Virus record (IMG/VR): IMGVR_UViG_2821904334_000002
Source of the DNA: an uncultured virus (IMG/VR IMGVR_UViG_2821904334_000002)
Taxonomy: Duplodnaviria; Heunggongvirae; Uroviricota; Caudoviricetes
Direction: 5' to 3' (one strand)
Length of the DNA: 63,470 bases
Position 1 is the stretch's first letter, and each line of letters opens with the position of its first letter. Of the stretch, positions 7,521 through 41,940 are shown piece after piece. The notes under the pieces were generated by a model that did not search any database, was not told where the DNA came from, and saw only the letters and a program-made list of their open reading frames with translations. The translations under genes were made by a program, and so were the position numbers.

Positions 7521-7534
7521 CTTATGTAACTATA

Positions 7535-17620: not shown

Positions 17621-18799
17621 ATGACAGTAAACACGAATTTCACAATCGAAGACAGTTATTTGGGGTATGAGAAAACGTTACCATCCAAGTTAAAAGTAGG
17701 TCAAGCAGTAAAACAATTAGATAAGAAAATCAGAATTGACGGAGTAGTGATGAAACAGAAGATGTTTATCCTTACTTTACTTCAAAAAGGATTTAAACCT
17801 AAGTTTGTAGAAAATTACACATATGTTATGAGAAACGGTGAGTACTCAAAACCAAAAGATTCGTATCAAATGGAGCATGAAGATTTATCCTTCTATGAAA
17901 TCAATAAGACACTATTCGATTATGCAAACTATTTAGTAGATAGTCAGTTAATCAATCCTACGCTTGTTGAGGGGTATGTTGAGACGGAACGTGCAGAGGT
18001 ACAATTAGGTATTGAACGAGAAAAGCATGAAGAAGAACAGAAGAAAAAAGAAGAAGACTTAGCTAAACAGAAAGAAGAACAAGAATTAGAAGAACGTAAG
18101 AAATTACGTCATAGTAAGGGACTTAGAAATTATTCTAGGAAAGCAGATTCCATTGTCCGAACTGAGGTAACTCGTATTATGAGGTTCTTAGCAGATGAGG
18201 GGTATATTAACGATGATGCGTTAGCAAAGACTGAGTATGTATATGAAAACGTAAAAGGTAAAATCATTCCTATCTTAGCAGAAGGGGTAAGTATCCTATC
18301 GTCTTTAGAGTATGCATTGGAGAGATACCAAAAAGGATACTTTAACCCAGAAGCAATACATCCAAACTCTTATATGACATATAAAGCATTAGTAAAACTG
18401 TTAGACGTAGATTTAGATAAGGGCGAACGAGAGATACGTAATAAGGTAAAATTGTTTATAACAAAACCAAATATAGCTACAAAAGGAAATCGCCCTTTGT
18501 CTGAGCTTATTATTGACGAAGATAACTTAGGTAGTAAAGAAGAACTATTAAAACAAGCTTCTAAAATGACATTATCTGATTTAAACTCAAAGAATCACAT
18601 TTATTTAACATATCATAAAGAAACAGGTAATTCTGAATTATTTACAGAAAGTGATATACCATTAACTCATGTAAAAGTAGAAGACGTATCTGTTAAACTA
18701 CAACACGTATTCCATAGAATGCCTGATGTAAGTAAAGCAAAACCTGATTGGAATTTAATATTCTACTATTTAGATAGTAACTTAGAGGATGTTCAATAA
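17621..18799 (+). CDS. Hypothetical protein, family B, with N-terminal extension and coiled coil
   Basis: C-terminal DEDNLGS.EEL...HIYLT..KETG..EL...DWN.I shared with 18799 and 26753. Confidence 0.75.
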   Translation: MTVNTNFTIEDSYLGYEKTLPSKLKVGQAVKQLDKKIRIDGVVMKQKMFILTLLQKGFKPKFVENYTYVMRNGEYSKPKDSYQMEHEDLSFYEINKTLFDYANYLVDSQLINPTLVEGYVETERAEVQLGIEREKHEEEQKKKEEDLAKQKEEQELEERKKLRHSKGLRNYSRKADSIVRTEVTRIMRFLADEGYINDDALAKTEYVYENVKGKIIPILAEGVSILSSLEYALERYQKGYFNPEAIHPNSYMTYKALVKLLDVDLDKGEREIRNKVKLFITKPNIATKGNRPLSELIIDEDNLGSKEELLKQASKMTLSDLNSKNHIYLTYHKETGNSELFTESDIPLTHVKVEDVSVKLQHVFHRMPDVSKAKPDWNLIFYYLDSNLEDVQ

Positions 18800-19554
18800 T
18801 GACAACAATTTCGAGTAACCGTAACCAAGTGGAAGTACCCTTAACAAAAGAAGAAAGACTACAAATCGTAAGGCAGTATAACAGTTCTATGCGGTATACA
18901 GACAAATTAGATAGTATTGTGACCGCTACTGTTTATCGTGTATACAATGATATGTCATATCAGGATAAGAAAAGATTAAAAGACCTTGATATTACACAAT
19001 TACATGGGTTTGTAAAAGATAGTATGCATCAAGTATTAGTAAACGAAGAAAGTATCTATAATAGTTTACTACGTGCAAGACAGTTAGACAAGCTAGGTAA
19101 ATTGAATATGCAGGAGTTAAAACTAAAAACATACATGAAGTACAAGGCACTAATAGATTATCTAGGGATAGACATACATCTTTCAGAGAAAGATTTAAAA
19201 TCTATTGTAAAACAGTTTGTTAGTTTAGATGCTTACTACGTGGGTAATAGAAGACCTACTTCTATGATTCTATTAGACGAAGAGAATTTCAGTTCAATTG
19301 ATACATTGGTGAACTACTTAAAGGATTTTGCAAAGAGACCAGTATCAGCAGACCATATATTTTTAGTAGAAAACCCTTATAATCAGGTAAGAGAATTATA
19401 TGTAGAATCACAATCACCTAATGCATGGATGAAACTAGAGGATATTACAATGAAAATCATAAAAATATTCCAACTAACGGATTTAGTTTATGCAGACTTT
19501 GATGTAGAATTGTTTCTAGGTTACATAGATGGGGTATTATCTCTAGAGAGTTAA
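18799..19554 (+). CDS. Hypothetical protein, family B
   Basis: YKAL...L..D, DEENFSS, HIFL, LEDIT.K. Confidence 0.75.
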   Translation: MTTISSNRNQVEVPLTKEERLQIVRQYNSSMRYTDKLDSIVTATVYRVYNDMSYQDKKRLKDLDITQLHGFVKDSMHQVLVNEESIYNSLLRARQLDKLGKLNMQELKLKTYMKYKALIDYLGIDIHLSEKDLKSIVKQFVSLDAYYVGNRRPTSMILLDEENFSSIDTLVNYLKDFAKRPVSADHIFLVENPYNQVRELYVESQSPNAWMKLEDITMKIIKIFQLTDLVYADFDVELFLGYIDGVLSLES

Positions 19555-19576
19555 GACTACTTCGGTAGTCTTTTTC
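19553..19576 (+). terminator. Intrinsic terminator with cUUCGg tetraloop
   Basis: AAGACTAC-TTCG-GTAGTCTT followed by T tract. Confidence 0.9.
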
Positions 19577-19628
19577 TTTTGAAAACATCTTATTCATAAG
19601 ACAGACTACATAGAGTAAAGAATAATAG

Positions 19629-19657
19629 TTGACAAGTTAGTAGTTTTATGGTATAAT
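19629..19657 (+). promoter_or_regulatory. sigma-A promoter
   Basis: TTGACA-17-TATAAT with TG extension. Confidence 0.85.
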
Positions 19658-19688
19658 AGTTTTATAAGGAAATAAGGAGTGTTTGTAT

Positions 19689-21419
19689 ATGTGTGTATCA
19701 AACGAGTGTAAGATAGTTGGTTGTAAAGGGAAATTAAAGGAACTAGGATATTGCAAAAAGCATGTAAGGGCATTACGAAACGGTACACTAAAATGTAAAG
19801 TTTCAGATTGTACAGGAGATGCAATAACAGGTGGTTATTGTAGTAGACATGATATGCAAAAGAGAAGATATGGTAAAGCCTATACAGAATCAGCGTTTAA
19901 AAAGTTTAAACCAAAAGCATTCTGTAAAGAAGACGGGTGTTTAAACAGGAGAAACTTAAAAGGATATTGTAAAGAGCATATTTATAAAGGTAAAGAACAA
20001 TGTAAAGAAGAAGAGTGTACAAGAAAGTCTGTAGCTGAAAACTTATGTACAGAACATTATATAGAAGAAAAAGAAATAAGTTTAAAAGATGTAGTAACAC
20101 CATATGATAAGAAAGAAGACCGAACAGGAACAATGTGTAAGATTATATACTGTACAAATAATCCTACTGTAGATGGTTATTGTGATAAACATGCTATCCT
20201 AATTAGTACTGGTAAACTAGAAGAAGAAATGACAAGACGAGGTACAGTGGAGTGTGAAGCAGAAGGTTGTGAATCATGGGTTAAAAATGGAACTCTTTGT
20301 CCGATGCATAAATCACATATGAAAAAGTATGGTAGAGTATTAACACAAGAAGAACATAAGCAGAAAACACCTAAAGCATATTGTAGAGCAGAAGGTTGTT
20401 ATATAAGAGAACCTAAAGGTAGGTACTGTAAAGAACATCAAGAACTTGGGATAAAAGAACTAGAAACTTCAAAAATAAAAGAAAATCTTTGTATCCATGA
20501 AAACTGTAAGAGAAAAGTAATTGCAAGTCATGTATGTATCAATCATTATTTAGAAGACGAACATGGAATAAGTCTAAACGGGGTATCAACTCCTTATGAT
20601 AAAGGTGAAGACCGTACAGGAACGATGTGTAAGATTGTGTATTGCAACGGAAGTCAAGAAATAGACGGTTATTGTACAAGACATGCTATTCTAATACATG
20701 CAAACGAACTAGAATCTGAGATGAAACGAATTGGTAGAGTAAAATGTAAAATAGATGATTGTACACAATGGTCTAAAACAGATGGTTTATGTGCTAGACA
20801 TAAAAATCAAGAAAGAAGATATGGGAGAGCTTTAACAGATAAGGAATTTAAAGAAAAGAACCCTTATTTATTCTGTAATGTAGATGGTTGTTTAAACCAT
20901 AGAGAAGAAGATGGATATTGTAAAGAACATAGACATGTTGCTATACAAATGAAAACAACATGTATAGCAGGAGGTTGTAAACTTCATAAGGTAGCGAAAG
21001 ATTTATGTAAAGACCATTACATAGAAAAGTATAAACCTGATTTAAAAGATGTTACTACTCCTTATGATAAGATGATTGATAAAACAGGAACTCATTGTAA
21101 AATAACATTCTGTCAATCTAAACCTAGTGTTGATGGGTACTGTAAGAAACATGCAGTCGCTATACATCATGGTAACTTAGATGAAATGATGGCAAAACAA
21201 AGAATGACAAAATGTGATGTAGAAGGTTGCGAAGCAATCACAAGGGGTAAAAGCACTTGTAGAATGCATTTAAAACAAATACAGAGATATGGTAGAGTAC
21301 TGTCATGGGAAGAACATAAACAGAAAGTACCTCAATCTTTTTGTAGTGTAGATAGTTGCTTAAACAGAAAACAAACTGGTAACTACTGTAAAGAACATGA
21401 AGGTATGGAAGGTAGATAA
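19689..21419 (+). CDS. Cys3His repeat (putative zinc-finger) protein, 15 fingers arranged as a 4-finger super-repeat
   Basis: C-x4-C-x~8-G-x-C-x2-H repeats; TPYDK..D.TGT.C occurs three times. Confidence 0.8.
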   Translation: MCVSNECKIVGCKGKLKELGYCKKHVRALRNGTLKCKVSDCTGDAITGGYCSRHDMQKRRYGKAYTESAFKKFKPKAFCKEDGCLNRRNLKGYCKEHIYKGKEQCKEEECTRKSVAENLCTEHYIEEKEISLKDVVTPYDKKEDRTGTMCKIIYCTNNPTVDGYCDKHAILISTGKLEEEMTRRGTVECEAEGCESWVKNGTLCPMHKSHMKKYGRVLTQEEHKQKTPKAYCRAEGCYIREPKGRYCKEHQELGIKELETSKIKENLCIHENCKRKVIASHVCINHYLEDEHGISLNGVSTPYDKGEDRTGTMCKIVYCNGSQEIDGYCTRHAILIHANELESEMKRIGRVKCKIDDCTQWSKTDGLCARHKNQERRYGRALTDKEFKEKNPYLFCNVDGCLNHREEDGYCKEHRHVAIQMKTTCIAGGCKLHKVAKDLCKDHYIEKYKPDLKDVTTPYDKMIDKTGTHCKITFCQSKPSVDGYCKKHAVAIHHGNLDEMMAKQRMTKCDVEGCEAITRGKSTCRMHLKQIQRYGRVLSWEEHKQKVPQSFCSVDSCLNRKQTGNYCKEHEGMEGR

Positions 21420-21527
21420 AAGAAACTTTTTACCTACCTTAATGTGGTATATAACTATAATAGTAAAACAATAAAGTATAAATAAGACAGGTTCTTACAA
21501 AAGACCTGTTTTTATTTTTGTTTAGGA

Positions 21528-22043
21528 GTGGGGTATGAAGATATGAAACAATGTAAAGAAGAGACTTGTTCAGACAAGCATTACAGTAAAGGATACTGTA
21601 GAAAACACTATATGCAATTCGAATACGGAAAGAAACCTTGTAAAGTAGAAGGTTGTACAAACAAGGTACACGCAAAAGGGTACTGTGACCCACATTATAA
21701 AGAACGTATCTATTTAAAAGGAAAGACTTGCAAGGTAGAAGGGTGTAACAAACCGTATCACGGAAAAGGTTTTTGTACCAATCATTACTATGAACAAAGA
21801 GTACACAATAAGCAAGAGAAGGAAGTAAGACTTTGTAGTATAGAAGGTTGCACAGATAAGCATTATGGTAAAGGGTATTGTTCTAAACACTATCGAATGA
21901 ATAGAAAGACTGGAAGTCCAATCGGTCAGTCTGAGAAAATACGAAACCAAGGTTGTTCTGTAGAAGGTTGCGAGAATGTTCACAGAGCAAAGGGGTATTG
22001 TTCGAAACATTATCAGTACTATCATAAGAAAGGTTTAATTTAG
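21528..22043 (+). CDS. Cys3His finger protein, 5 fingers
   Basis: C.VEGC..KH..KGYC..HY repeats (ATG 21543 is the likely start). Confidence 0.8.
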   Translation: MGYEDMKQCKEETCSDKHYSKGYCRKHYMQFEYGKKPCKVEGCTNKVHAKGYCDPHYKERIYLKGKTCKVEGCNKPYHGKGFCTNHYYEQRVHNKQEKEVRLCSIEGCTDKHYGKGYCSKHYRMNRKTGSPIGQSEKIRNQGCSVEGCENVHRAKGYCSKHYQYYHKKGLI

Positions 22044-22071
22044 TAAACGTATATGTTAGGTAGCTACATTC

Positions 22072-22100
22072 TTGACAAATAAAGAAATTTATGTTATAAT
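22072..22100 (+). promoter_or_regulatory. sigma-A promoter
   Basis: TTGACA-17-TATAAT with TG extension. Confidence 0.85.
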
Positions 22101-22130
22101 AGTAGGTATAAAGAGTGGAGGATAAAGGGT

Positions 22131-22475
22131 ATGTGTCAATCAAAACAATGTAAAGTAGAGGGATGCGAAAACAAAAAGAAAGCAAGAGGGTTATGCAACA
22201 AACATTATACAAGGTTTAGTAGATATGGTACACACAAACTATTACATGAAGTAGTGAGTGTGAAAGGGAAACCATGTGAGATAATTGGATGTAAAGAAAC
22301 GCAAAAAGCAAAAGGGTTATGTGATTATCATTATTTTGAAGAGTGGAAGAGAAAGAAAACAAAAGTTTGTTCTATAGACGGTTGTTCTTCAAAGGAGTAC
22401 ACAAAAGGGTTGTGTCAAAACCACTATATGCGTAAAAGAGACGAAGAGATAGAGAAACTAGAGAAACTGGGGTAA
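22131..22475 (+). CDS. Cys3His finger protein, 3 fingers
   Basis: C...GC.....KGLC..HY x3. Confidence 0.8.
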   Translation: MCQSKQCKVEGCENKKKARGLCNKHYTRFSRYGTHKLLHEVVSVKGKPCEIIGCKETQKAKGLCDYHYFEEWKRKKTKVCSIDGCSSKEYTKGLCQNHYMRKRDEEIEKLEKLG

Positions 22476-22481
22476 GATGGC

Positions 22482-22622
22482 ATGAAAGAAAGAGAATTAG
22501 ACTTCTATTCATTAATGGAAGGAAAGAAGCAACTAGCACAAGAAATGGCTAACTTGATAAAGAGTGGCTATACAGAGTCACAAGTGATTGATTTAGTTTT
22601 AAAAATGTATGGAAATCAGTAA
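22482..22622 (+). CDS. 46-aa hypothetical protein (below the ORF-track cutoff)
   Basis: MKERELDFYSLMEGKKQLAQEMANLIKSGYTESQVIDLVLKMYGNQ fills the gap; GGGG SD upstream. Confidence 0.5.
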   Translation: MKERELDFYSLMEGKKQLAQEMANLIKSGYTESQVIDLVLKMYGNQ

Positions 22623-22664
22623 ACAAGAGTAGAAACTATCTAGAATTGAAGTGGGGTAGTAATT

Positions 22665-23093
22665 ATGTGTAAAGAAACCAAACAATGTAAAGCAAAGAAT
22701 TGTCAGAAACGGGAAGAAAGAGAAGGGTTTTGTAAAGTACATTTGATTCAATTTCTAAATGGAGAAGAGATTGAAGTCGGTACAAACGAATGTATTATTG
22801 AAGACTGTAACTTAGAAGCCGTAACAGCAATGGGATATTGTCATACACATAAAAATCAAGCATACAGATGGGGTAGAGCCTATTCAGAGAAAGAGTTAAA
22901 AGGGGTAAAACCACATCTATTTTGTAAAGAACCGAAATGTATAAATAGAAGAGAAACTGGTGGTTATTGTGAAAAGCATAAGCATCTAATAGAAGACAAT
23001 AAATTAAAATGTAGTGAATCGAATTGTGAACATAAAGTATTTAAAGATGGAGTTTGTAGACAACACTATATTGAGAAACTAGATTTCTCTTAA
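22665..23093 (+). CDS. Cys3His finger protein, 4 fingers (short version of 19689-21419)
   Basis: G.AYSE...K..KP..FCKE..C.NRR matches the N-terminus of 19689. Confidence 0.8.
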   Translation: MCKETKQCKAKNCQKREEREGFCKVHLIQFLNGEEIEVGTNECIIEDCNLEAVTAMGYCHTHKNQAYRWGRAYSEKELKGVKPHLFCKEPKCINRRETGGYCEKHKHLIEDNKLKCSESNCEHKVFKDGVCRQHYIEKLDFS

Positions 23094-23147
23094 TGGAAAA
23101 GTGTTGTCACAACACTTTTATGATAGCCAAAAACGAGGTGATTAACT

Positions 23148-23750
23148 CTGTTAGATAATAAATTAGGAATCACAAACCAAATGGAGTTAGATAAGGAAGA
23201 AGAAAGAATCAGTAAAATAAAAGCCAAAACGTTATATGATTCTGGTGGTATCAATAAGTTGGAAGTAGGAACATATAGAGGTTTATCAGATATACATGCG
23301 TATCTATTTGAAGACTTATATGACTTTGCAGGTAAACTAAGAACAGTAAACATGGCAAAAGGAAACTTCCGATTTGCTCCTGTTATTCATTTAGGGGTAG
23401 CGTTAAAATAGATTGATAAGATGCCTCAAACGACAGTAAAAGAGATTGTAGAAAAGTATGTAGAAATGAACATTGCTCATCCTTTCCGAGAAGGGAATGG
23501 AAGAAGTACTCGTATATGGTTAGACTTACTATTAAAGAAAGAAGTAAGGAAGGTAGTTGATTGGTCGTTAATTCGTAGAGAAGACTACTTTTCAGCAATT
23601 CAACGTAGTCCAATAAACGACTTACAACTTCAACAAGTCATTGCAAATTCTTTAACAGACGCTATTGATAGTAGGGAACTGTATATGCGAGGAATAGATG
23701 TTAGTTTCGAATATGAAGGGTTTACAAGATATAGAACAGAAAACTTATAG
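23148..23750 (+). pseudogene. fic: Fic-domain AMPylase interrupted by an in-frame TAG
   Basis: LDNKLGITNQ N-terminus, IH.YLF.D.Y.FAG..R.VN..KG.FRF, intact HPFREGNGR motif; TAG at 23409-23411 joins two in-frame ORFs; CTG at the expected start. Confidence 0.85.
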
Positions 23751-23839
23751 AAAGATACCTCTAGTGTAAATTAGGGGTATTATCTATGTAAACATACAAC
23801 AAGAAAATAAAGTATAAACGTACTAGGAAGATAAAGTAG

Positions 23840-24694
23840 GTGTTAAATGTGTCATCCAAACAATGTAAAGTAGAAAACTGTACAAATAAGGTATTAGCAA
23901 GAGAAATGTGTTCAAAGCATTATGCTCAATGGAGAACACATGGTAAGTTACGACCTGACTTAGAAAAGCAAAGACATGATACTTGTACAGAAGAAGGTTG
24001 TAATAGAAAGCACTACTGTAAGGGGTATTGTAATAAACATTATAAGCAGTATAAAGCACATGGTAGAATTACACCCGAACTAGAAAGAACAGGAAAACCT
24101 AAGATTTGTAGTGTAGATGATTGTAATAGTAAAGTAGTGAGTAAAGGGTATTGTAGGAAACATTATTCTCAATTATACAGACATAATGAATTAAGACCTG
24201 ATATCGAAAGAGGTAAGATTAGATTATGTACGGTAGACGGATGTGAGAATAAGTATAAAGCAAAAGGATATTGTACAGGTCATTATGTGCAGTTCAAGAA
24301 ATATGGTTACATAGTAAAACCAGTTAAACAAGAAACAAGACAATGTAAAGCAAAAGGTTGTAAGGAACCAATACGTGCGAGGGGTTGTTGCGATAAACAT
24401 TACCAACAACTTAGAATACATGGTAGTTTACAGTCTAAGTCAGAGAAACAATGTAGTGTAAAGGATTGTACAAATCCACACCAATCGAAAGGGTTCTGTA
24501 ACAAACATTATAAGCAGATAACTCGTCATAATGAAATTATAGACTACAGATTACATAAAGGTTGTTTAGTAGAAGGTTGTAACAACAAACATAAAGCAAG
24601 AGGACTTTGTAAGAAACACTACCAAAGAGTAATGAATACATTAAACAAGGTAGAAAACACATATCACATCAAAGTAGGGGTAGTAAACCAATGA
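23840..24694 (+). CDS. Cys3His finger protein, 7 fingers
   Basis: Repeats with HG.L.P.LE linkers. Confidence 0.8.
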   Translation: MLNVSSKQCKVENCTNKVLAREMCSKHYAQWRTHGKLRPDLEKQRHDTCTEEGCNRKHYCKGYCNKHYKQYKAHGRITPELERTGKPKICSVDDCNSKVVSKGYCRKHYSQLYRHNELRPDIERGKIRLCTVDGCENKYKAKGYCTGHYVQFKKYGYIVKPVKQETRQCKAKGCKEPIRARGCCDKHYQQLRIHGSLQSKSEKQCSVKDCTNPHQSKGFCNKHYKQITRHNEIIDYRLHKGCLVEGCNNKHKARGLCKKHYQRVMNTLNKVENTYHIKVGVVNQ

Positions 24695-24930
24695 TTTGTA
24701 GAGAAAAAGGTTGTCATAGTAAAGTAAGAGCAAAAGGTTTGTGTGCAAAACACTATACACAAGTACAAAGACATGGTAGAGTTACACCTGAGAAAGAGAA
24801 GCTTCAAAACGGTGGAATTTGTTCAGAAAAGAATTGCAATAATAAACTAAGAAGTAGAGGATTATGTGCGAGTCACTACTACCAACATATGAAATTCTAT
24901 CAAAAGAAAAAGAATAAAGAGAACTTATAG
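24691..24930 (+). CDS. Cys3His finger protein, 2 fingers
   Basis: Two repeats; ATGA overlap with the upstream gene. Confidence 0.8.
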   Translation: MICREKGCHSKVRAKGLCAKHYTQVQRHGRVTPEKEKLQNGGICSEKNCNNKLRSRGLCASHYYQHMKFYQKKKNKENL

Positions 24931-24969
24931 GTCTACATCTGTTAGACCTTTTTGTTTGCCTTTATTTAT

Positions 24970-24998
24970 TTGACAAATAAGGAAACTTATGTTATAAT
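24970..24998 (+). promoter_or_regulatory. sigma-A promoter
   Basis: TTGACA-17-TATAAT, spacer ending AAACTTATGT. Confidence 0.85.
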
Positions 24999-25018
24999 AT
25001 AACTAGATAATGTAAAGG

Positions 25019-25732
25019 GTGAGAGAAATGGCAAAGAAGCATAAAGTTTGTACAGTACCAGACTGTAGTTTGGTTTACTACGCAAGGGGTTGTTGTAGGA
25101 AACATTATAATCAGATTAAAGAACATGGTAGACTTACACCTGAGTTAGAGATAGTAGGTATAACGAGAAGGTGTTCAGAAAAGAACTGTAATAATTTACA
25201 TTATGCAATAGGGTTATGTGAGAAACATTATCAACAGAAACGTAAATATGGTAAAGTTGTTAGTATAGTGGAGGATAATGAACTTTGTGAAATAAAAGAC
25301 TGTCCTTATCCAAGGAGAGCAAAAGGGTATTGTAGAAAACACTATTCTCAACTCTATAGAAACGGTGAAATTAATAGAAAGAGAGAAAGAGACAGAATCA
25401 AACTATGTAAGGTAGATGGTTGTACGGGAAAGCATAAATCACATGGTTATTGTTCAAAACATAATAATCAAATGAGTAAGTATGGTAGAGTTATAACAGA
25501 CGAAGAAAAAGGTCAATATAAAACTTGTCAGTTAGAGGGTTGTAGCAATACGCACGTAGTAGAGGGGTATTGTGGTATGCATTACAATGAGAAAAGGTTA
25601 ACTGGCAAGGTTACAATACAAACAAATAAGGTAAAAAGAGAAGGATGTAAGGTAGAAGGTTGTAAGAACAAGCATTATGCAAGAGGTTTTTGTCGTAAGC
25701 ATAATACAAAAGATAAAAACGGAGGTTTATGA
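25019..25732 (+). CDS. Cys3His finger protein, 6 fingers
   Basis: Six repeats. Confidence 0.8.
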   Translation: MREMAKKHKVCTVPDCSLVYYARGCCRKHYNQIKEHGRLTPELEIVGITRRCSEKNCNNLHYAIGLCEKHYQQKRKYGKVVSIVEDNELCEIKDCPYPRRAKGYCRKHYSQLYRNGEINRKRERDRIKLCKVDGCTGKHKSHGYCSKHNNQMSKYGRVITDEEKGQYKTCQLEGCSNTHVVEGYCGMHYNEKRLTGKVTIQTNKVKREGCKVEGCKNKHYARGFCRKHNTKDKNGGL

Positions 25733-25733
25733 G

Positions 25734-26588
25734 TTGCAAACGAAGGTATGTTCAGCAGAAGGTTGCAATAATAAAAGTTATTGTAGAAGTTATTGTAACA
25801 AACATTATCGTCAATGGAAAAGACATGGTAGGCTAACTCCTGAGTTAGAAAAGGGTGGAAATAAGAGTTGTAAAACAGAAGGTTGTAAGGAAAGATATTA
25901 TGCAAAAGGGTATTGTTATAATCATTACAAGCAGTTTAGATATAACTTAAAAGAACCTTCTATGATAGAGGGAGAAACATGTATATTAGAAGGATGTAAT
26001 ACTGTTATCTATGCAAAAGGGTATTGTTCCAAGCATTACGCAAGATTCCTAAGAAACGGGGAAGTATTACCTGATAAACCAATAGAAACTAGATTATGTA
26101 CCGCAGAAGGTTGTGGTAACAGGCATTACGCAAAAGGGTACTGTAGTAAACATTACTTGCAACATCGAGCGCATGGGAAACTGTCTCCTGAGACTGAAAA
26201 GAAACATTACCACAAGACTTGTATAGCCGAAGGTTGTAACAATAAGCATAGGAGTAAAGGGTATTGTTCTAAACATCTACGTCAATTTGAGACTCATGGG
26301 AGATTAACACCTGAATTAGAGATAAATATATCAAGTAAAGGTGAAACTAAAGAGTGCAAGGTAGAAGGTTGTACAAGCAATATCAAAACAAAGGGTCTTT
26401 GTAGTAAACACTATCAGTATTTCAGAAAGAATGGGGTAGTAAGTAAAGAACCTAAAGATAGAAAAGATGGGTTATGTAAAGAAAAAGACTGTAAAAAGGA
26501 ATCATTCTCTAAAGGGTATTGTTCTACACACTATCATAGAAGAAATAGACTAAGAAAAGAATTAGAGAAACAAATAAAAAGAGTGTAA
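25734..26588 (+). CDS. Cys3His finger protein, 7 fingers
   Basis: GGAGGT SD then in-frame TTG at 25734; seven repeats with HGRLTPELE-type linkers. Confidence 0.8.
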   Translation: MQTKVCSAEGCNNKSYCRSYCNKHYRQWKRHGRLTPELEKGGNKSCKTEGCKERYYAKGYCYNHYKQFRYNLKEPSMIEGETCILEGCNTVIYAKGYCSKHYARFLRNGEVLPDKPIETRLCTAEGCGNRHYAKGYCSKHYLQHRAHGKLSPETEKKHYHKTCIAEGCNNKHRSKGYCSKHLRQFETHGRLTPELEINISSKGETKECKVEGCTSNIKTKGLCSKHYQYFRKNGVVSKEPKDRKDGLCKEKDCKKESFSKGYCSTHYHRRNRLRKELEKQIKRV

Positions 26589-26612
26589 GGTTTACTAGTA
26601 GTAAACCTTTTT
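26587..26612 (+). terminator. Intrinsic terminator
   Basis: AAGGTTTACT...AGTAAACCTT-TTT. Confidence 0.75.
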
Positions 26613-26629
26613 ATTATGTCTACTCTTAC

Positions 26630-26658
26630 TTGACAAATGCATAAACTTATGGTATAAT
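26630..26658 (+). promoter_or_regulatory. sigma-A promoter
   Basis: TTGACA-17-TATAAT, spacer ending AAACTTATGG. Confidence 0.85.
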
Positions 26659-26752
26659 AGTACTATATAAGAAATACAAATAAAGGTATAAGTAAAGAGA
26701 CTTATAAGTAGAAGTATTCTAGTTAAAGTAGGAAACTATCCTTATAAGGAGT

Positions 26753-27538
26753 ATGAAAAAGGTTAAGGTAAAAAGAATCACCAACAAGATAAGCATACGA
26801 GACGAAAAGATAAAAGTATCTGATAAGAAAGAAGGGTTAAGTATGAAACAAGTATCAGACCAGTTAGAAGTGGCAATTGTACAAGGTTTAGAGAAACATG
26901 TTCGTTCGTTTATGAATAAAGGGGTAGTCGCATTCACCCCTAGTTCTTTAGATGCGACTCTATTACGCATGAAAGGTGAGGTAGAGCGTACTTTACAAGA
27001 CGTGGATAGAGTAATGGAACTTGTAGATGAAGCAATCGGTCTTACTCGTATAAACCGTTATAATCCGTATAACATGAGTCCGTTAGAAATGGCAAAGTTC
27101 GAGACGATTCAAGAGATAATAGGTTTACCGTCCGAATGGGGTAGAACAGACTTAGTCGTAAAAATAGAGGACTTCTTAAATAAAGCAAAGTCTTTACCTA
27201 TTACACAAGTAAACGTACTATCTCTATTAACGAACGAAGATAACTTTGGTTCAAACGAAGAAATGGTAAAATTTATTGATAGTCATGAGTTAGATATTTT
27301 AAAAGACTTCACAAGACACATCTACCTTACAATGAATAAGGAAACTGGTGTACGTGATTTACATTTCTATCATTATGTACCAGAAAACTATTTAAGGTTA
27401 GAAAACATTACATTAAGATTGAAATATGTCTTCCTTAACTTAGTAGATAGAAATAAAGAACTAGATTGGAATGAGATTGAAGCGTTATTAAATACACCAA
27501 ACCTAGAATTAGTACGTAAAATTAAAGGGTTAGCATAG
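26753..27538 (+). CDS. Hypothetical protein, family B
   Basis: NEDNFGSNEE, HIYLT..KETG, LENIT.RL, DWNEI; start uncertain. Confidence 0.75.
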   Translation: MKKVKVKRITNKISIRDEKIKVSDKKEGLSMKQVSDQLEVAIVQGLEKHVRSFMNKGVVAFTPSSLDATLLRMKGEVERTLQDVDRVMELVDEAIGLTRINRYNPYNMSPLEMAKFETIQEIIGLPSEWGRTDLVVKIEDFLNKAKSLPITQVNVLSLLTNEDNFGSNEEMVKFIDSHELDILKDFTRHIYLTMNKETGVRDLHFYHYVPENYLRLENITLRLKYVFLNLVDRNKELDWNEIEALLNTPNLELVRKIKGLA

Positions 27539-27541
27539 TAG

Positions 27542-28885
27542 GTGACAAAATTGTGTACAGAACAATGTAAAGCAGAAGATTGTCAAGAAAAAGTAATAGC
27601 AGACGGGTATTGTTATATACATTTTATGTTTGTAAGTAGTAAAACGAAAGATAAGAGTCAAAAGGCAAAAGAAATAATGATGGAAAACTACAATATAATC
27701 TGTATCGAACAAGATTGCGAAGATACAAAGACCTACAAGGATAGATGTGATAAACATACTACGTTACATCACTTACAAGAAGTAGTTCAAATTTGTAAAG
27801 TAAAGGGATGCTTAAACGAAGTACATCAAGATAAGTTATGTAAGTATCATAGTAGACACAATAAAGTATTGGGTTTCATCATAGAAACTGTACCTACTGT
27901 TAGACTTTGTAAGGAATTAGGTTGTCTTCACGATGGGGTATACAAGCAATATTGCGAAAAGCATTACATTGAGCATAAACAGAAGGAGAATGAAATAGAA
28001 GATTTATTATGTAAAGAAGAACAATGTAGTGCAATAGCTGAAATAAAAGGATATTGTTTAACTCATTATAAACCTGATAAGAAACAAAGCATTATCGTAG
28101 ATAAGACAGAAAAAGTAGTCGGAACGTTAGAAATGTCGAATAGATGTGGTATAAAAGATTGCACAGACGTCTTAATTGATGAAGATTTTTGTGAAAAACA
28201 TGCTAACTTAATAAGTTCGCAAGTGTCTGTAGAAGAATCGAATAGCAATTCAAGTTTTGTAAAGAAATCTATACAGACTTGCATCGTAGATGGTTGTGTT
28301 CACTTAGAACACAAATTTGGGTTATGCGAATATCATTATAATGACATAGGTGAATTAGGAGACTTTAAATCAGACAAAGAAGTATTTGAAGACCGAAGAT
28401 GTGCGGTAGAAGATTGTAGTTCAAAACGTACTAAGGTAATCAAAGACTCTTGTTTCTGTAAGTCACATTATGATGGGTTCGTGAATAGAGAAAAGATAGC
28501 AAAGAAAATCAAGAAGAAAACTGAGAAACTATGTAATGTATTTGAGTGTAATGAACCTAGAGATACAAGACTCTATTGTTCGTATCATGCGGAGCATATC
28601 AAGATGGGGTATGACTTTGAAATGAAAGACTGGTGTAGCCAGTCAGGGTGTAAAGAAGAAGCAAACATGATGATAGGTAAGAAATACTATTGTAAGAAGC
28701 ATGGAACTTGTAGGGAGAAGTATTGTAGGAATACGGTTCATCATAACGGTTTATGTCAAGAGCATTTGGCACAAAAGAAAGAAGCGAAACATTGTAAAAC
28801 CATGAATTGTAAGGAGAAAGTGTATAGAAGTGGATTTTGTAAAGAACACTATACAATGGTAAAGAATCTAGAAAGAGGGGTCTGA
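27542..28885 (+). CDS. Divergent Cys3His finger protein, about 12 fingers
   Basis: More acidic, degenerate C-x4-C...C-x2-H repeats. Confidence 0.75.
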   Translation: MTKLCTEQCKAEDCQEKVIADGYCYIHFMFVSSKTKDKSQKAKEIMMENYNIICIEQDCEDTKTYKDRCDKHTTLHHLQEVVQICKVKGCLNEVHQDKLCKYHSRHNKVLGFIIETVPTVRLCKELGCLHDGVYKQYCEKHYIEHKQKENEIEDLLCKEEQCSAIAEIKGYCLTHYKPDKKQSIIVDKTEKVVGTLEMSNRCGIKDCTDVLIDEDFCEKHANLISSQVSVEESNSNSSFVKKSIQTCIVDGCVHLEHKFGLCEYHYNDIGELGDFKSDKEVFEDRRCAVEDCSSKRTKVIKDSCFCKSHYDGFVNREKIAKKIKKKTEKLCNVFECNEPRDTRLYCSYHAEHIKMGYDFEMKDWCSQSGCKEEANMMIGKKYYCKKHGTCREKYCRNTVHHNGLCQEHLAQKKEAKHCKTMNCKEKVYRSGFCKEHYTMVKNLERGV

Positions 28886-28886
28886 T

Positions 28887-29237
28887 TTGGGTACTTGTAA
28901 AGTAGAACATTGTGGTAGAAACACGAGAGCAAAAGGTTACTGTCACAAACACTATCAACAGTATTTAAGAACAGGGACAACATGGTTAGGTTACAGTGAA
29001 TTTCCTACAAAACAGTGTGAAGTACCAGACTGTGATGGTAGGCACTTTGCGAAGGGGTATTGTAACCGTCATTATCAGCAATTTAAGGTACATGGAGAAG
29101 TTAAAACTGATTTAGAAGTACAACAAGAAAGGGTTTGTTCCGTAGACGGTTGTTGTGGAAAGGTACTTGCAAAGAAAATGTGTGGTAAACATTACTATCA
29201 AGTAAGACGTAAAGGAAAAGTTGTGCAATTAGCATAG
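28887..29237 (+). CDS. Cys3His finger protein, 3 fingers
   Basis: Three repeats. Confidence 0.8.
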   Translation: MGTCKVEHCGRNTRAKGYCHKHYQQYLRTGTTWLGYSEFPTKQCEVPDCDGRHFAKGYCNRHYQQFKVHGEVKTDLEVQQERVCSVDGCCGKVLAKKMCGKHYYQVRRKGKVVQLA

Positions 29238-29264
29238 GAAACAATAAGGTAAGGAGTCTTTTAG

Positions 29265-29519
29265 ATGTCAAAAGGTCAATGTGAAGTAGCAGGATGCAGT
29301 ACACCCGTACACTCGAAAGGGTATTGTAATAAACACTACCTTCAAATATGGAAACATAAGAAATTAACACCTGAGTTAGAAAGAATGAAGGTAAACGATT
29401 GTATCATACCGAATTGCGAAGGTAAGGTGCGTTCGAAGGGGTATTGCAGTAAACATTATTATCGCTTTGTTTTAAAGGAAAGGGAGAAGTCTAAAGAAAC
29501 AGATAAAACTATACAGTAA
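29265..29519 (+). CDS. Cys3His finger protein, 2 fingers
   Basis: Two repeats, LTPELE linker. Confidence 0.8.
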   Translation: MSKGQCEVAGCSTPVHSKGYCNKHYLQIWKHKKLTPELERMKVNDCIIPNCEGKVRSKGYCSKHYYRFVLKEREKSKETDKTIQ

Positions 29520-29522
29520 GAG

Positions 29523-29948
29523 GTGGATACGGTGACGATTTGCAAGGAAGAAGGTTGCAATTCGAAACAACACGCTAAAGGATTATGTAACACACATTAT
29601 CAAAAGAGTAGACGAAATTCTTTACATACAGGTAGTAATACATGCAAAGTAGACACTTGTAATTTACCCCACTACGCAAAGGGGTATTGTAATAAACATT
29701 ATCAAAGCAGAAGGATGACTAAGATAATAAGAGACAAACCACCTAAACCAAGAAAAGTATGTAAAGTAGAGGGTTGTCAGTTAGACCATAGAGCAAAAGG
29801 TTATTGTCAAAAACATTATTATCAAGTAAAGAATAATGGTAAGGTGTTAGATAAAGTATTACAGGTAGACTACTGTATTATCGAGGGGTGTCACCGAGTC
29901 AGGGAAGCTAAGGGGTATTGTCCGAAGCATTATCAAAGAGTATATTAA
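29523..29948 (+). CDS. Cys3His finger protein, 4 fingers
   Basis: Four repeats. Confidence 0.8.
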   Translation: MDTVTICKEEGCNSKQHAKGLCNTHYQKSRRNSLHTGSNTCKVDTCNLPHYAKGYCNKHYQSRRMTKIIRDKPPKPRKVCKVEGCQLDHRAKGYCQKHYYQVKNNGKVLDKVLQVDYCIIEGCHRVREAKGYCPKHYQRVY

Positions 29949-29954
29949 TAGACG

Positions 29955-30018
29955 AAGAGTTTACTAGTGTAATAGCTTAAAGTATCTAAAACTATTACAA
30001 ATAAATAAGTAAACTCTT
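29955..30018 (+). terminator. Long interrupted hairpin ending the finger array
   Basis: AAGAGTTTACT/AGTAAACTCTT outer arms, TGTAATAG/CTATTACA inner arms. Confidence 0.5.
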
Positions 30019-30038
30019 TAATTTTGTCTTAAACATTA

Positions 30039-30067
30039 TTGACATATACCTAAACTTATGGTATAAT
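30039..30067 (+). promoter_or_regulatory. sigma-A promoter
   Basis: TTGACA-17-TATAAT, spacer ending AAACTTATGG. Confidence 0.85.
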
Positions 30068-30315
30068 AAGTATGTGTTAAGAAAAGGTAGTAAAGAAATA
30101 TACCTATTAAATGTTATAAGAATACATATGACTAACTAACCCTATAATGTGCTAGGAACGTAAATAATAGGTCTGTGCAATTATGGAACGTTTGTCTGTA
30201 GGAAACATAGCTTCATAGTTTAATAGGGTATAAGACAAAAGAGTAAGTAAACTAAACCAATTAAGGGAGGATTGAGATACTAAAAGAGTCGAGGGACTAC
30301 GGTATCGAAAACAAA

Positions 30316-32541: not shown

Positions 32542-32654
32542 GCAATAAGTACCAACAGGGGTAGGGCTATGGGTAAAACTGTAGCCTTTCTCTATAATTC
32601 TATGAAATGTATATACAAATATTCAAAACTAGTAATATTTTTATCACAACAATG

Positions 32655-32683
32655 TTGACATATGGCTAAACTTATGGTATAAT
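32655..32683 (+). promoter_or_regulatory. sigma-A promoter
   Basis: TTGACA-17-TATAAT, spacer ending AAACTTATGG. Confidence 0.85.
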
Positions 32684-32866
32684 AAGTATATAGTAAAGAA
32701 GAGATAACAAAAGAAAATACTAGTATTACTTTGGGAAAACATATTAGTAGATTCAAAGATTCATACTATAACAAGAAAAATCGAGTTAAACAAAAAATAA
32801 CAAAACGAATGGGGGTTCGAGATACTCTATTAAGTCGTAGTAATAGTTGGGGTATCGAACATAGCA

Positions 32867-35529: not shown

Positions 35530-35786
35530 GGTAATATTAGTAAAACCGCTAAGTTGTATAGAGCGAATAAAATAGGCTAATTTTACCAATTAGGGGTAGA
35601 AAAAGTAAAAGGCTTAATGATTTTGATTCCCTAGTAGAGAAAGAGAAACGGATTTATAAGAAATAGGTAAAAAGAAGCATGAAGGTTAAACGAAAAAGAT
35701 AAAGTAAAGAACTATACTCTTTATCCTATTAAATATAAAGTTTAATTACATATACATAGATAAAATATACAAACTAGATAGTAGGA

Positions 35787-36368: not shown

Positions 36369-36402
36369 GAGGTAGAGAATATTTAGAAGAGAGGTGATAA
36401 AT

Positions 36403-38745: not shown

Positions 38746-38776
38746 ACTAGAAAGTAGAAAGGAGGTAGTTTATCCT

Positions 38777-39937: not shown

Positions 39938-39969
39938 GAAACATTATCTTAAACGAGGTGGTAATCGTT

Positions 39970-40323: not shown

Positions 40324-40350
40324 GAGTGTTTCACGAAAAGAGGGGTAGTC

Positions 40351-41135: not shown

Positions 41136-41465
41136 ATGAAACTATGTAATGTAGAGGGTTGTAATAGTAAACATCGAGCAAAAGGTTATTGTCCAAGACA
41201 TTATAGACAAGCTAGAGCAGGGAAAGAGATTACATTGGAGTATATCAATCAAACTGGTAGGATTTGTAGTCTAGATGGATGTAACCGAAAGCATAGAGCA
41301 AAAGGGTTGTGTAAATTACATTATGACAATGCGAGATATATAGTAAGACCCTCTAAACCTGTAAGACTATGTACAGTAGTAGGTTGTACAAGTAAACATC
41401 AAGCAAAAGGAATGTGTTTAAATCATTACAATCAGAAGCGATATAAAGAATTAAAGACGAAGTAA
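41136..41465 (+). CDS. Cys3His finger protein, 3 fingers
   Basis: Three repeats. Confidence 0.8.
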   Translation: MKLCNVEGCNSKHRAKGYCPRHYRQARAGKEITLEYINQTGRICSLDGCNRKHRAKGLCKLHYDNARYIVRPSKPVRLCTVVGCTSKHQAKGMCLNHYNQKRYKELKTK

Positions 41466-41484: not shown

Positions 41485-41940
41485 TTGGAGACTAGAACTT
41501 GTAGTATAGAAAGGTGTAACGAAAAGCATCAAGCAAAAGGTTATTGTAAACGACACTATCAACAAATTAATACAGGTAGGGAAATAACTCTTAAAGGGGC
41601 AGATAAAACTTGTACAGTTGAAGGTTGTAACAAGAAAACAAAAGCAAAAGGGTTGTGTCCAACTCATTATCAAAGAATGAAATTAACTGGTTCAACGGAA
41701 AAGAAGATTATAGAACAACGTATTTGTAAAGTTGAAACTTGTAATGAGAAGCATTTAGGTAAGAGGTACTGTAGAAGACATTATCATCAATTTAAAACTA
41801 AAGGTAAAGTAACGATTGAAGGTAGATTATCAGATAGAACTTGTAGTGTAGAAGCTTGTAACAATAAGTATCATACAAAAGGAATGTGCCAAAAACATTA
41901 CACTAGATGGTATAGAAACGAGAAAAAGAAAGACAAATAA
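41485..41940 (+). CDS. Cys3His finger protein, 4 fingers
   Basis: Four repeats. Confidence 0.8.
   Translation: METRTCSIERCNEKHQAKGYCKRHYQQINTGREITLKGADKTCTVEGCNKKTKAKGLCPTHYQRMKLTGSTEKKIIEQRICKVETCNEKHLGKRYCRRHYHQFKTKGKVTIEGRLSDRTCSVEACNNKYHTKGMCQKHYTRWYRNEKKKDK

Follow-up and report, generated by a model that had tools for sequence, protein, structure and literature searches.

A cluster of Cys3His finger genes on a pXO16-related plasmid stretch, with a predicted role in nuclease-free DNA binding

Fifteen genes in the DNA analysed here (63,470 nucleotides, IMG/VR record IMGVR_UViG_2821904334_000002, hereafter the window) encode 78 Cys3His fingers, and across the sampled plasmids, phages and genome loci such a clustering of 15 genes stands out as exceptional. 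The window is a stretch of a giant Bacillus plasmid related to pXO16. We put at about even (probability roughly 0.5) the proposal that the 14 stand-alone members are nuclease-free, probably sequence-specific DNA binders derived from the targeting module of homing endonucleases. If this reading is true, they form a large family, as yet uncharacterised, of DNA-binding proteins that lack a cutting part. No published description of a 15-gene finger array was found in the literature.

Finger counts and gene layout

Using a loose finger pattern (C-x2-5-C-x5-14-C-x2-3-H), we counted 15, 5, 3, 4, 7, 2, 6, 7, 12, 3, 2, 4, 1, 3 and 4 fingers in the 15 open reading frames, reproducing exactly the 78 fingers reported in a first-pass annotation of this DNA. 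When the whole window was scanned in six frames, a strict pattern (C-x4-C-x9/10-C-x2-H) yielded 76 fingers; all 76 lay in frame within the 15 named genes and none outside them. Residue shuffles of the 15 proteins (n = 1000) gave a mean of 0.11 matches and a maximum of 3, so the 76 observed are far beyond chance. Of the 78 loose matches, 70 had the ligand spacing 4-9-2, the other eight being mostly cases in which the loose pattern caught an extra upstream Cys, and the sole invariant positions in an alignment of the 76 strict units were C4, C9, C19 and H22. As described previously, the proteins are mostly basic (pI 9.2-9.9 for 12 of 15; 8.8, 8.2 and 7.9 for the rest) and an H-G-(R/K)-L-T-P-E-L-E-like linker recurs, with nine copies across five genes; a second linker, YGR(V/I/A)(L/I)(T/S)xEE, was found in five copies. 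With pI values of 8.8 and 7.9, the two largest finger proteins are considerably less basic, and their fingers are divergent. Cysteine content is high, at 6-46 Cys per protein. The reported lack of a catalytic domain was also borne out, since none was detected by Pfam at E <= 0.1 in the 14 stand-alone proteins; the HNH-type catalytic domains PF01844, PF13392, PF14279 and PF02945 had no match at this threshold in any of the 15.

Genes and putative signals are listed below. Starts follow the longest-ORF rule, and some real starts are probably a few codons downstream (e.g. 21543, 25028, 29532).

18799..19554, +, 251-aa protein without fingers immediately 5' of the array; distantly paralogous to 26753-27538 and 17621-18799
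19553-19572, terminator-like hairpin 5' of the sub-cluster 1 promoter
19629..19657, +, perfect extended -10 sigma-A-type promoter heading sub-cluster 1 (12/12 consensus with TG)
19683..21419, +, 15-finger gene, 578 aa, pI 8.8, divergent finger subtypes in three 5-finger super-repeats
21528..22043, +, 5-finger gene, start probably 21543; dN/dS 0.08
22072..22100, +, perfect sigma-A-type promoter heading sub-cluster 2
22131..22475, +, 3-finger gene, 114 aa, pI 9.3, 94% amino acid identity to pXO16; dN/dS 0.11
22482..22622, +, 46-aa ORF without fingers, within the array, 98% amino acid identity to pXO16 CDS WP_000664337; dN/dS 0.06
22665..23093, +, 4-finger gene, 142 aa; pXO16 ortholog 301 aa with 8 fingers
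23181..23750, +, Fic-domain gene broken by one in-frame TAG (23409-23411); pXO16 version intact, 200 aa
23840..24694, +, 7-finger gene, 284 aa, pI 9.6, three HG(K/R)L(T/R)P(D/E)LE-type linkers; dN/dS 0.15
24691..24930, +, 2-finger gene, 79 aa, 4-nt overlap with the preceding stop; dN/dS 0.18
24929..24949, +, terminator-like hairpin closing sub-cluster 2
24970..24998, +, perfect sigma-A-type promoter heading sub-cluster 3
25019..25732, +, 6-finger gene, start probably 25028; dN/dS 0.12
25677..26588, +, 7-finger gene, start uncertain; paralog of 23840-24694, at the position of the pXO16 RelA/SpoT gene
26587..26609, +, terminator-like hairpin closing sub-cluster 3
26630..26658, +, perfect sigma-A-type promoter heading sub-cluster 4
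26753..27538, +, non-finger protein opening sub-cluster 4, start probably 26843; 231 aa in pXO16; paralog of 18799-19554; dN/dS 0.15
27542..28885, +, finger gene, 447 aa, pI 7.9, divergent fingers (10 by the strict pattern, 12 by the loose one); dN/dS 0.21
28887..29237, +, 3-finger gene, 116 aa, 98% amino acid identity to pXO16; dN/dS 0.03
29265..29519, +, 2-finger gene, 84 aa, HKKLTPELE linker; dN/dS 0.17
29523..29948, +, 4-finger gene, start probably 29532; dN/dS 0.08
36394..38745, +, 783-aa protein: one N-terminal finger, four HTH repeats, a domain X of ~140 aa, five HTH repeats, domain X again
41136..41465, +, 3-finger gene of the second cluster, 109 aa, pI 9.9; phrog_5351 E 3e-35
41485..41940, +, 4-finger gene of the second cluster, 151 aa, pI 9.7; DUF5763 29.0 bits (cut-off 26.3)

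All long ORFs of the window lie on the + strand, and at least seven families of tandem paralogs occur in it, the finger array among them. The super-repeats of the first finger gene are direct repeats of 492/468 nt with 64-77% identity. Neither 18799-19554 nor 26753-27538 had a Pfam or PHROG match; the paralogy of the former was seen by BLASTP (22% identity over 138 aa, E 5e-8) and in its grouping within the same paralog cluster. Pfam Fic matched both pieces of the broken gene at 23181-23750, of which a read-through translation was made, and the intact pXO16 protein (E 5.5e-14). The finger clusters adjoin a cluster of poly-HTH genes. The 783-aa protein matched HTH_23 (E 1.1e-30) and, over its full length, phrog_12058 (1113 bits), and its HTH parts matched phrog_8446 and phrog_7545 ('HNH endonuclease').

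The sequence TTGACA-N17-TATAAT with TG occurs at 19629, 22072, 24970 and 26630 within the array and at 30039 just past it, and the array would be transcribed as four operons from these consensus sigma-A promoters. The first-pass annotation had assigned sub-clusters their own strong promoters; such promoters do head the four sub-clusters, but they are not special to the array, since 16 perfect sites occur across the window, all on the + strand, against 0.03 expected.

The finger family and its nuclease-fused relatives

By profile matches, the array finger belongs to DUF5763 (PF19067) / Zf_WRKY19 (PF24906) and to PHROG families labelled HNH endonuclease, and it has the four ligands Cys-Cys-Cys-His at the fixed spacing of the DUF5763 / Zf_WRKY19 finger. 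The curated Pfam cut-offs (whole-protein scores of 26.3 bits for DUF5763 and 27 for Zf_WRKY19) were passed by 4 of the 15 proteins, namely 19683-21419 (37.6), 25019-25732 (26.7) and 41485-41940 with DUF5763 and 23840-24694 with Zf_WRKY19 (27.3); most others scored below the cut-off and two had no match, and these remaining proteins are tied to the family by paralogy within the array. Both phrog_5351 and phrog_1271 matched all 14 stand-alone proteins on their finger regions (E 2e-10 to 2e-65 for phrog_5351; 1.6e-61 for 23840-24694). These four family entries describe the finger and give no function. The PHROG label stems from HNH-bearing members, whereas HNH is absent from the array proteins.

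The finger is widespread, with 27,782 representative clusters. Among the best 150 multi-finger representatives, 54 were nuclease-fused (HNH-type 38, Endonuclease VII 10, LAGLIDADG 3, GIY-YIG 3), one was fused to an XRE-type HTH and 94 had no other Pfam family. Tblastn and BFVD matches were mostly actinophage HNH endonucleases. The stated association of this finger with phage HNH endonucleases is therefore upheld, but not its description as a single accessory module: among the best 150, nuclease-fused arrays carry 4-18 fingers and span four nuclease classes. In 120 genome loci we found 79 finger-bearing open frames, and of the 53 scanned, 50 were small and had no further family. Proteins made of fingers alone are common, so this feature of the array is no novelty.

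The array fingers share their conserved and basic positions (V3, E/D4, G5, A12, K/R13, G14, Y/L15, Y20, R/K24-25, G27) with 306 fingers of nuclease-fused proteins, at a net charge per 34-aa unit of +3.25 in the array and +2.42 in the fused proteins. Nuclease-fused arrays of phages and Actinobacteria use the same finger but carry a catalytic domain, and the sampled genomes and loci hold one or few such genes, whereas the window has 14 nuclease-free genes side by side. A further relative is the pair gp9/gp10 of the B. thuringiensis jumbo phage 0305phi8-36, adjacent Cys-rich paralogs annotated 'may contain zinc fingers', which match the 7-finger protein (30% identity, E 2e-19); that phage has two genes only and three matching places in its 219-kb genome.

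AlphaFold2 models of a single finger confidently showed a knuckle, a beta-hairpin and a helix (pLDDT 83.8), suggesting the fold of a small treble clef. In the di-finger model (pLDDT 87.2, pTM 0.48) confidence was lowest in the linker, consistent with beads on a string. The nearest solved folds were treble clefs, the best being A20-type (3vux_E, A20 ZnF7, Z 4.0; 3oj3_I, Z 3.8; rmsd 1.1 A, 30 residues; Foldseek E 2.9), with GATA fingers (GATA1, AreA) below them at Z 2.7-2.8; all these Z-scores are low, the domain being too small to score strongly. A20-type and GATA-type fingers may share the fold class, a zinc knuckle and beta-hairpin followed by a helix with the last two ligands, but differ in ligand set and spacing (A20, C-x2-4-C-x11-C-x2-C; GATA, C-x2-C-x17-C-x2-C). 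Membership in the A20-type sequence family, with its four Cys ligands, was rejected: the fourth ligand is His in all 76 units, and zf-A20 had no match at E <= 0.1 in the 15 proteins. The finger profile also weakly matched a Cys3His site of 6K8N whose zinc is confirmed by crystallography, which would indirectly favour zinc binding.

Comparison with pXO16 and conservation of the fingers

Identity of the window to pXO16, a conjugative plasmid of 350 kb from B. thuringiensis israelensis, is ~86%. Over the 12-kb stretch compared (19000-31000), nucleotide identity was 80-90% across 88% of its length, with the collinear homology and one-strand genes of a pXO16-type element. A paralog-rich layout with genes in one orientation is described for pXO16 in the available text of a review (PMC6199540); what is available of the pXO16 reviews mentions many paralogues but never zinc. 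Gene order and both finger clusters of the window recur in pXO16 (pAM65-52-2-350K / pBTHD789-1), with 71-98% protein identity across the array, and diverged array versions are present on B. toyonensis and B. cereus contigs, so the array is not private to the window. In pXO16 (349.6 kb) there are 66 finger profile matches, confined to 85.4-95.5 kb and 101.9-106.6 kb, and a profile search of the whole plasmid found none outside these two clusters. Every finger gene there is annotated 'hypothetical protein'. The only PF01844 match in pXO16 lies outside the array at 63.8 kb, and PF13392 had no match in the plasmid.

Finger numbers differ between the two plasmids. The first array gene has 15 fingers in the window and 11 (426 aa) in pXO16, with window 20931-21452 lacking a counterpart, and the fourth finger gene has 4 rather than 8, with 6645-7076 of the pXO16 segment L001 missing from the window. 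In place of the intact Fic gene of pXO16 and its 198-aa gene with a RelA/SpoT domain (RelA_SpoT, E 1.6e-7), a Fic pseudogene and an additional 7-finger gene are present in the window. At the RelA/SpoT position, window 25721-26577 and L001 9679-10308 are unalignable between conserved flanks, and the best pXO16 match of 25677-26588 is a 7-finger gene at 41%. The family may have grown by old tandem duplication, with finger blocks still being gained and lost.

The array genes are under purifying selection, with dN/dS of 0.03-0.21 at dS 0.24-0.69 for nine genes. In 37 orthologous finger pairs, non-ligand positions were 86% identical between orthologs against 20% between paralogs: individual fingers keep their own identity across the two plasmids. 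Hairpin positions 9-15 have paralog identities of 0.11-0.38 (Gly14, 0.66), yet ortholog conservation of 92-100%, the pattern expected of specificity residues.

Proposed function and alternatives

The array finger may be the module with which many homing-type endonucleases target DNA, since a domain joined to four unrelated types of DNA-cleaving domain bears the hallmark of a modular DNA-targeting unit. In the proposed mechanism, each finger would bind one zinc ion and use its beta-hairpin and helix to contact a few base pairs, and flexible linkers would string 2-15 fingers so that each protein reads its own extended DNA site. Lacking a catalytic domain, the proteins would bind without cutting, and would regulate, occlude sites or organise DNA, either for the pXO16-type plasmid of ~350 kb or on DNA of the host or of rivals. 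Nucleic-acid binding, as the first-pass annotation predicted, is the best-supported reading; the basic pI of 12 of the 15 proteins, the positions shared with nuclease-fused fingers, the fusion of one finger to nine HTH repeats in 36394-38745 and the adjoining poly-HTH genes count toward DNA binding, and the operon-like layout, perfect promoters and terminator-like hairpins count toward the explanation as a whole. Counted against it are the ubiquitin-binding rather than DNA-binding A20-type fold matches, the less basic and divergent two largest proteins, and the 94 of the best 150 database proteins without a partner domain; nuclease fusions, moreover, would speak for relatives rather than for the array proteins themselves. 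The earlier observation was confirmed and its interpretation partly supported. Its comparison with eukaryotic C2H2 poly-zinc-finger clusters is fair in that both are tandemly amplified finger genes of variable finger number, and NUMOD-type homing-endonuclease domains, in the literature text available, may be likened as small modules strung together and paired with varied nucleases; both likenesses are analogies, not homologies, to an array whose DNA binding is predicted.

Binding of protein is the first alternative to weigh, with A20-like fingers serving as binders or decoys that neutralise proteins of host defence or rival elements on plasmid entry. The closest solved folds, A20 ZnF7 and ZnF4, are both complexed with ubiquitin, and the rapid change in finger numbers, the strong consensus promoters, the setting among tandem paralog families and the interspersed Fic and, in pXO16, RelA/SpoT enzyme genes would all suit such a role. 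However, the structural scores are weak and common to DNA-binding GATA fingers, zf-A20 is unmatched, the recurrent fusion partners are DNA-cleaving or DNA-binding domains, and dN/dS gives no arms-race sign between the two plasmids; we regard this role as unlikely. Some finger proteins might instead be antitoxin-like or regulatory partners of the embedded toxin-type enzymes, as the pXO16 Fic gene begins 2 nt past the stop of the 8-finger gene and its small RelA/SpoT homolog overlaps the 6-finger gene by 11 nt. Yet in the window Fic is broken and RelA/SpoT absent while the adjoining finger genes are intact and under purifying selection, and 14 finger genes are too many to be explained by two enzymes, making such partnerships very improbable.

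Homing endonuclease targeting modules recognise duplex DNA, which argues against the fingers binding RNA or single-stranded DNA, for example in single-strand transfer or replication, and we hold this to be quite unlikely. It draws on the Cys3His zinc site in domain V of Sulfolobus topoisomerase III, to which the match of the finger profile and model (E 0.9 by hmmsearch; third in Foldseek, with rmsd 1.1 A over 27 residues) is far from significant and whose first knuckle is C-x2-C rather than C-x4-C. According to the accessible parts of the sources, deletion of that domain lowers single-stranded DNA binding ~5-fold (bioRxiv 10.1101/706986) and pXO16 transfers single-stranded DNA (2018 review, PMC6199540). 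The absent catalytic domain and high cysteine content would also fit decaying homing-endonuclease remnants or a zinc store without a sequence-specific role, but this is hardly credible: all nine comparable genes are intact and under purifying selection over dS 0.24-0.69, and finger identities are conserved, whereas a metal sink needs no ortholog-specific conservation of non-ligand positions.

Finger repeats and their conservation relative to pXO16

Every long open reading frame in the window (G+C content 30–38%) lies on the plus strand, and twelve of them, between 19683 and 29948, are made almost wholly of one Cys-rich repeat; three more genes, at 36394, 41136 and 41485, also contain it. A loose pattern recovered 15, 5, 3, 4, 7, 2, 6, 7, 12, 3, 2, 4, 1, 3 and 4 fingers per gene, exactly the 78 counted by hand in the first-pass annotation. 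The spacing C-x4-C-x9-C-x2-H was found in 70 of these 78 matches, most of the other eight having picked up an extra upstream Cys, and a strict pattern gave 76 fingers. All 76 were in frame within the 15 genes, and searching all six frames across the window showed none outside them; 1000 residue shuffles of the 15 proteins produced a mean of 0.11 finger matches and never more than three. Alignment of the 39-residue units left only the four ligands invariant, with the consensus K-x-C-K-V-E-G-C-N-N-K-H-Y-A-K-G-Y-C-x-K-H-Y-x-Q-x-(R/K)-(R/K)-H-G. The proteins had also been described as mostly highly basic with a recurring HG(R/K)LTPELE linker, in line with the pI of 9.2–9.9 calculated for 12 of the 15 and with nine linker copies of this type across five genes.

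Window positions 19000–31000 matched ten copies of one ~350-kb Bacillus thuringiensis plasmid at 80–90% identity and had no megablast match in the phage collection. One of the ten, pAM65-52-2-350K, has been named as pXO16, an aggregation-mediated conjugative plasmid (PMC6199540), to which the window is related at only ~86% nucleotide identity. According to two reviews, this giant plasmid has ~434 CDSs, few with homologues and most without an assigned function, and the fact that its genes all point one way, together with numerous potential paralogues, has suggested a phage-like nature (PMC6199540, PMC9673590). Its natural distribution is described as apparently confined to serovar israelensis, and a survey of 1,168 plasmids recovered no copies other than near-identical ones, at 99.8% protein identity or more (PMC9673590). 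Neither review uses the word "zinc".

Gene order in the array is collinear with pXO16. The count of fingers per replicon suggested in the first-pass annotation, made here with a profile of the 76 units, returned 66 matches on the 349.6-kb pXO16 record, all located at 85.4–95.5 kb or 101.9–106.6 kb and corresponding to the same two clusters as in the window. The pXO16 finger genes, all annotated "hypothetical protein", form the largest gene family on that plasmid and are a candidate for a part in plasmid regulation, maintenance or host effect. The first array gene has 15 fingers in the window and 11 in pXO16, and the fourth has 4 and 8, respectively. Two further genes differ between the replicons:

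25677–26588: 7-finger gene, a paralog of 23840–24694, in the exact place of a RelA/SpoT-domain gene of pXO16
23181–23750: Fic-domain gene with one in-frame TAG (23409–23411) and an intact HPFxxGNGR motif in the downstream piece

The former is a clean cassette replacement with conserved flanks (window 25721–26577 versus 9679–10308 of L001, the aligned pXO16 stretch), in which the 7-finger gene stands in place of a 198-aa RelA/SpoT-domain protein annotated as GTP pyrophosphokinase. The Fic gene, interrupted by the stop in the window, is whole in pXO16 (200 aa). The array is still changing by blocks of fingers and genes between the window and pXO16.

Nine genes compared with pXO16 had dN/dS values of 0.03–0.21 at dS 0.24–0.69, and flanking genes were alike. 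In 37 orthologous finger pairs, identity at non-ligand positions was 86% between orthologs versus 20% between paralogs. Conservation at hairpin positions 9–15 was 0.11–0.38 among paralogs (except for the conserved Gly14) and 92–100% between orthologs. Since these positions are variable among paralogs and kept between orthologs, each finger has its own conserved identity, a pattern that speaks against both decay and a role as a simple store of metal. Identity between DNA repeats of the array is only 60–77%, so the duplications are old. At the head of either array half stands one of two paralogous ~250-aa proteins, and next comes a large poly-finger gene that is divergent and less basic; these matching heads hint at an old segmental duplication.

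Fold, family and partner domains of the finger

In Pfam the proteins matched DUF5763 and Zf_WRKY19 with scores at or close to threshold, four of them passing a curated cut-off, and a search of NCBIfam with all 15 gave no match. All 14 stand-alone proteins fell into PHROGs families phrog_5351 and phrog_1271, both labelled "HNH endonuclease"; these matches lie on the fingers and no HNH domain is present, consistent with the earlier statement that the stand-alone genes have no catalytic domain. AlphaFold2, given the 76 paralogous units as alignment, confidently predicted a knuckle, a beta-hairpin and a helix starting at the third Cys (pLDDT 83.8). A two-finger model (pLDDT 87.2, pTM 0.48) had its lowest confidence in the linker, which indicates that the fingers would be independent beads on a flexible string. 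Among solved structures, fingers of the A20 type came closest (Z 4.0 and 3.8, rmsd 1.1 Å over 30 residues), followed by GATA fingers (Z 2.7–2.8); these neighbours are all treble clefs, and their Z-scores are weak because the domain is so small.

By sequence, the 7-finger protein had no significant match in the PDB, and the finger profile retrieved 6K8N alone (E 0.9). This weak sequence match is to the Cys3His zinc site in domain V of Sulfolobus topoisomerase III, which also came third in Foldseek, a resemblance we treat as a lead only. In the available part of the preprint describing that domain, zinc is confirmed crystallographically and deletion of the domain lowers single-stranded DNA binding ~5-fold (bioRxiv 10.1101/706986). 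For the finger family, our searches turned up neither a characterised function nor a clearly related protein of solved structure.

At a threshold of E ≤ 0.001, the unit profile matched 27,782 representative clusters among 1.84 billion proteins, ranging from phages to oomycetes, and 367 of them reached E ≤ 1e-30. The best 150 of these representatives, with 3–18 matched stretches each, were scanned with Pfam (41 proteins at E ≤ 1e-5, 109 at E ≤ 1e-6).

Partner domains among the best 150 finger proteins
HNH-type: 38
Endonuclease VII: 10
LAGLIDADG: 3
GIY-YIG: 3
XRE-type HTH: 1
DUF7236: 1
Finger families only, without partner: 94 (an upper bound, since one belongs to a cluster with members named GIY-YIG endonuclease in the source)

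The finger had been described in the first-pass annotation as a single accessory module on phage HNH endonucleases. The HNH partnership was borne out (38 of 150), but the finger also occurs in arrays and with other nuclease classes. The window fingers have conserved and basic positions in common with 306 fingers of nuclease-fused proteins, and the di-finger model matched 13 viral proteins in BFVD (E ≤ 0.001); where these have names, they are mostly actinophage HNH endonucleases. Within Bacillus, a B. toyonensis contig of 324,634 bp has three adjacent genes of 9–10 fingers, and B. cereus contigs contain diverged orthologs, including a 589-aa protein 42% identical to the 15-finger gene. A homolog search with a 4-finger protein, a method too insensitive for the repeat, gave seven candidates and one match. 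Proteins of the oomycete Aphanomyces (373–1046 aa, ~25 fingers in a representative) and a 1598-aa fungal protein were also among the best matches to the bacterial profile (database proteins P0055, P0153–P0159 and P0106).

Density of the array and candidate functions

A tblastn search of 72,556 plasmid records, with the 7-finger protein as query, picked up 27 of them. The ten pXO16 copies had 28–31 matching places each (at least this many in eight records), and the other 17 plasmids had 1–4. Matches were found in 25 of 50,697 phage records, with no more than four places each; gp9 and gp10 of phage 0305phi8-36 carry the annotation "may contain zinc fingers". A related-locus search in genome contigs found no relative of the 7-finger protein, and four IMG/VR loci (L002–L005) had 1–2 fingers each. 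Scanning genome contigs with a degenerate DNA pattern for KGYCxKHY returned at least 120 loci, a sample and not a census. The 120 listed loci of ~5 kb contained no finger in 42 cases, one in 24, two in 46, three in six, and four and five in one each. They included 79 finger-bearing open frames (median 104 aa), and among the 53 scanned with Pfam, HNH_3, a phage integrase domain and ArsP/HMA were each found once, the last probably by chance, with nothing else in the remaining 50.

Stand-alone proteins of ~70–140 aa with one or two fingers and no other Pfam domain were observed on chromosomes of many phyla (loci L007–L126), for example in Paenibacillus (L051, L053, L055, L057, L067, L068) and Binataceae (L044, L049, L065), and look like a widespread uncharacterised family.

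By these counts small stand-alone finger proteins are ordinary and already common, whereas 68 fingers in 10.3 kb are not, compared with the plasmids, phages and genome loci sampled; the clustering of 15 genes is the unusual part among the samples searched. Animal genomes are typified by clusters in which many poly-zinc-finger genes lie together, but in bacterial replicons such clusters are, to our knowledge, not a recognised feature. No description of the array was found in the literature searched (pXO16, finger families and motif), and pXO16 together with zinc yielded nothing beyond one unrelated endolysin paper; the primary report of the pXO16 sequence, outside this search, may describe these paralogs (Makart et al., 2015, Plasmid 80:8).

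The best-supported reading is that the arrays are nuclease-free DNA binders derived from a targeting module of homing-type endonucleases. It draws on the predicted fold, on purifying selection, on conservation particular to each finger and on the domains to which related fingers are fused, and would entail that the array proteins are expressed, bind zinc and bind DNA with sequence specificity. Candidate roles could be regulation, site occlusion or DNA organisation. The main rival is that the fingers bind protein, as the A20-type fingers at the head of the structural matches would suggest, possibly in counter-defence; the nuclease partners, and the positions shared with nuclease-fused fingers, point instead toward DNA. 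The Fic and RelA/SpoT enzymes embedded in the array offer another explanation, that the finger proteins are their partners, but this accounts for at most a few finger genes.

Beyond the DNA-binding reading, it is conceivable, though with all its parts taken jointly we would give it only about one chance in five, that the finger reads short DNA words in a modular way, with hairpin positions 9–15 as its recognition code. The arrays would then be a natural combinable DNA-recognition system of bacteria and phages, the nuclease-fused relatives natural zinc-finger nucleases, and the 14 nuclease-free arrays a repertoire of site-specific occluders or silencers, with which the giant pXO16-type plasmids might shield or control specific sites in their own DNA, in the host or in rival elements. 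If true, modular reading would explain target finding by a large class of homing endonucleases and could provide a new small DNA-binding scaffold.

Neighbouring paralog families and promoters

Next to the second finger cluster lies a group of helix-turn-helix genes:

34975–41124: five poly-HTH proteins with 1, 1, 9, 5 and 2 HTH_23-type repeats in tandem, all with a common C-terminal domain of ~140 aa (domain X)

The 783-aa member (36394–38745) starts with one finger and contains domain X twice, and its HTH repeats match PHROG families labelled HNH endonuclease or DNA-binding protein. Two kinds of nuclease-associated DNA-binding module have thus been multiplied next to each other and, in one case, joined in a single protein. 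This finger-HTH protein had no relative in the phage collection save one partial match to a haloarchaeal virus. Domain X had no PDB match by sequence; a weak match to PDDEXK_5 (E 0.016) in one of six copies makes a nuclease fold possible, as a lead only.

Counting the finger array, the window contains at least seven families of tandem paralogs, further ones being located at:

1104–8648
17621–19554 and 26753–27538
30316–34894
58588–59385
60527–62680

Among these further families are six ~330-aa proteins without assigned function (23–28% identity), a pair of amidase/SH3 cell-wall hydrolases and, close to the right end, a family of four.

Perfect TTGACA-N17-TATAAT promoters occur at 16 sites between 1044 and 59835, all on the plus strand, compared with 0.03 expected by chance, and nearly all share a conserved AAACTTATGG spacer end. 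Examples are:

1044, 2749, 5301, 7535, 13912, 32655, 42275, 47035, 56724, 57990 and 59807, plus strand: perfect promoter sites

Four perfect promoters with an upstream TG each head one of four finger sub-clusters, two of which are closed by terminator-like hairpins. Strong promoters of several sub-clusters had been noted at first pass, but the property extends to the element as a whole, which appears from these motifs to use nearly identical sigma-A promoters of consensus sequence for its transcription. Phage early regions are transcribed in a like manner. Directly after the second finger cluster lies a possible orphan DNA methyltransferase, a 607-aa protein (42351–44174) whose weak N6_Mtase match (E 7e-4) falls short of the curated cut-off.
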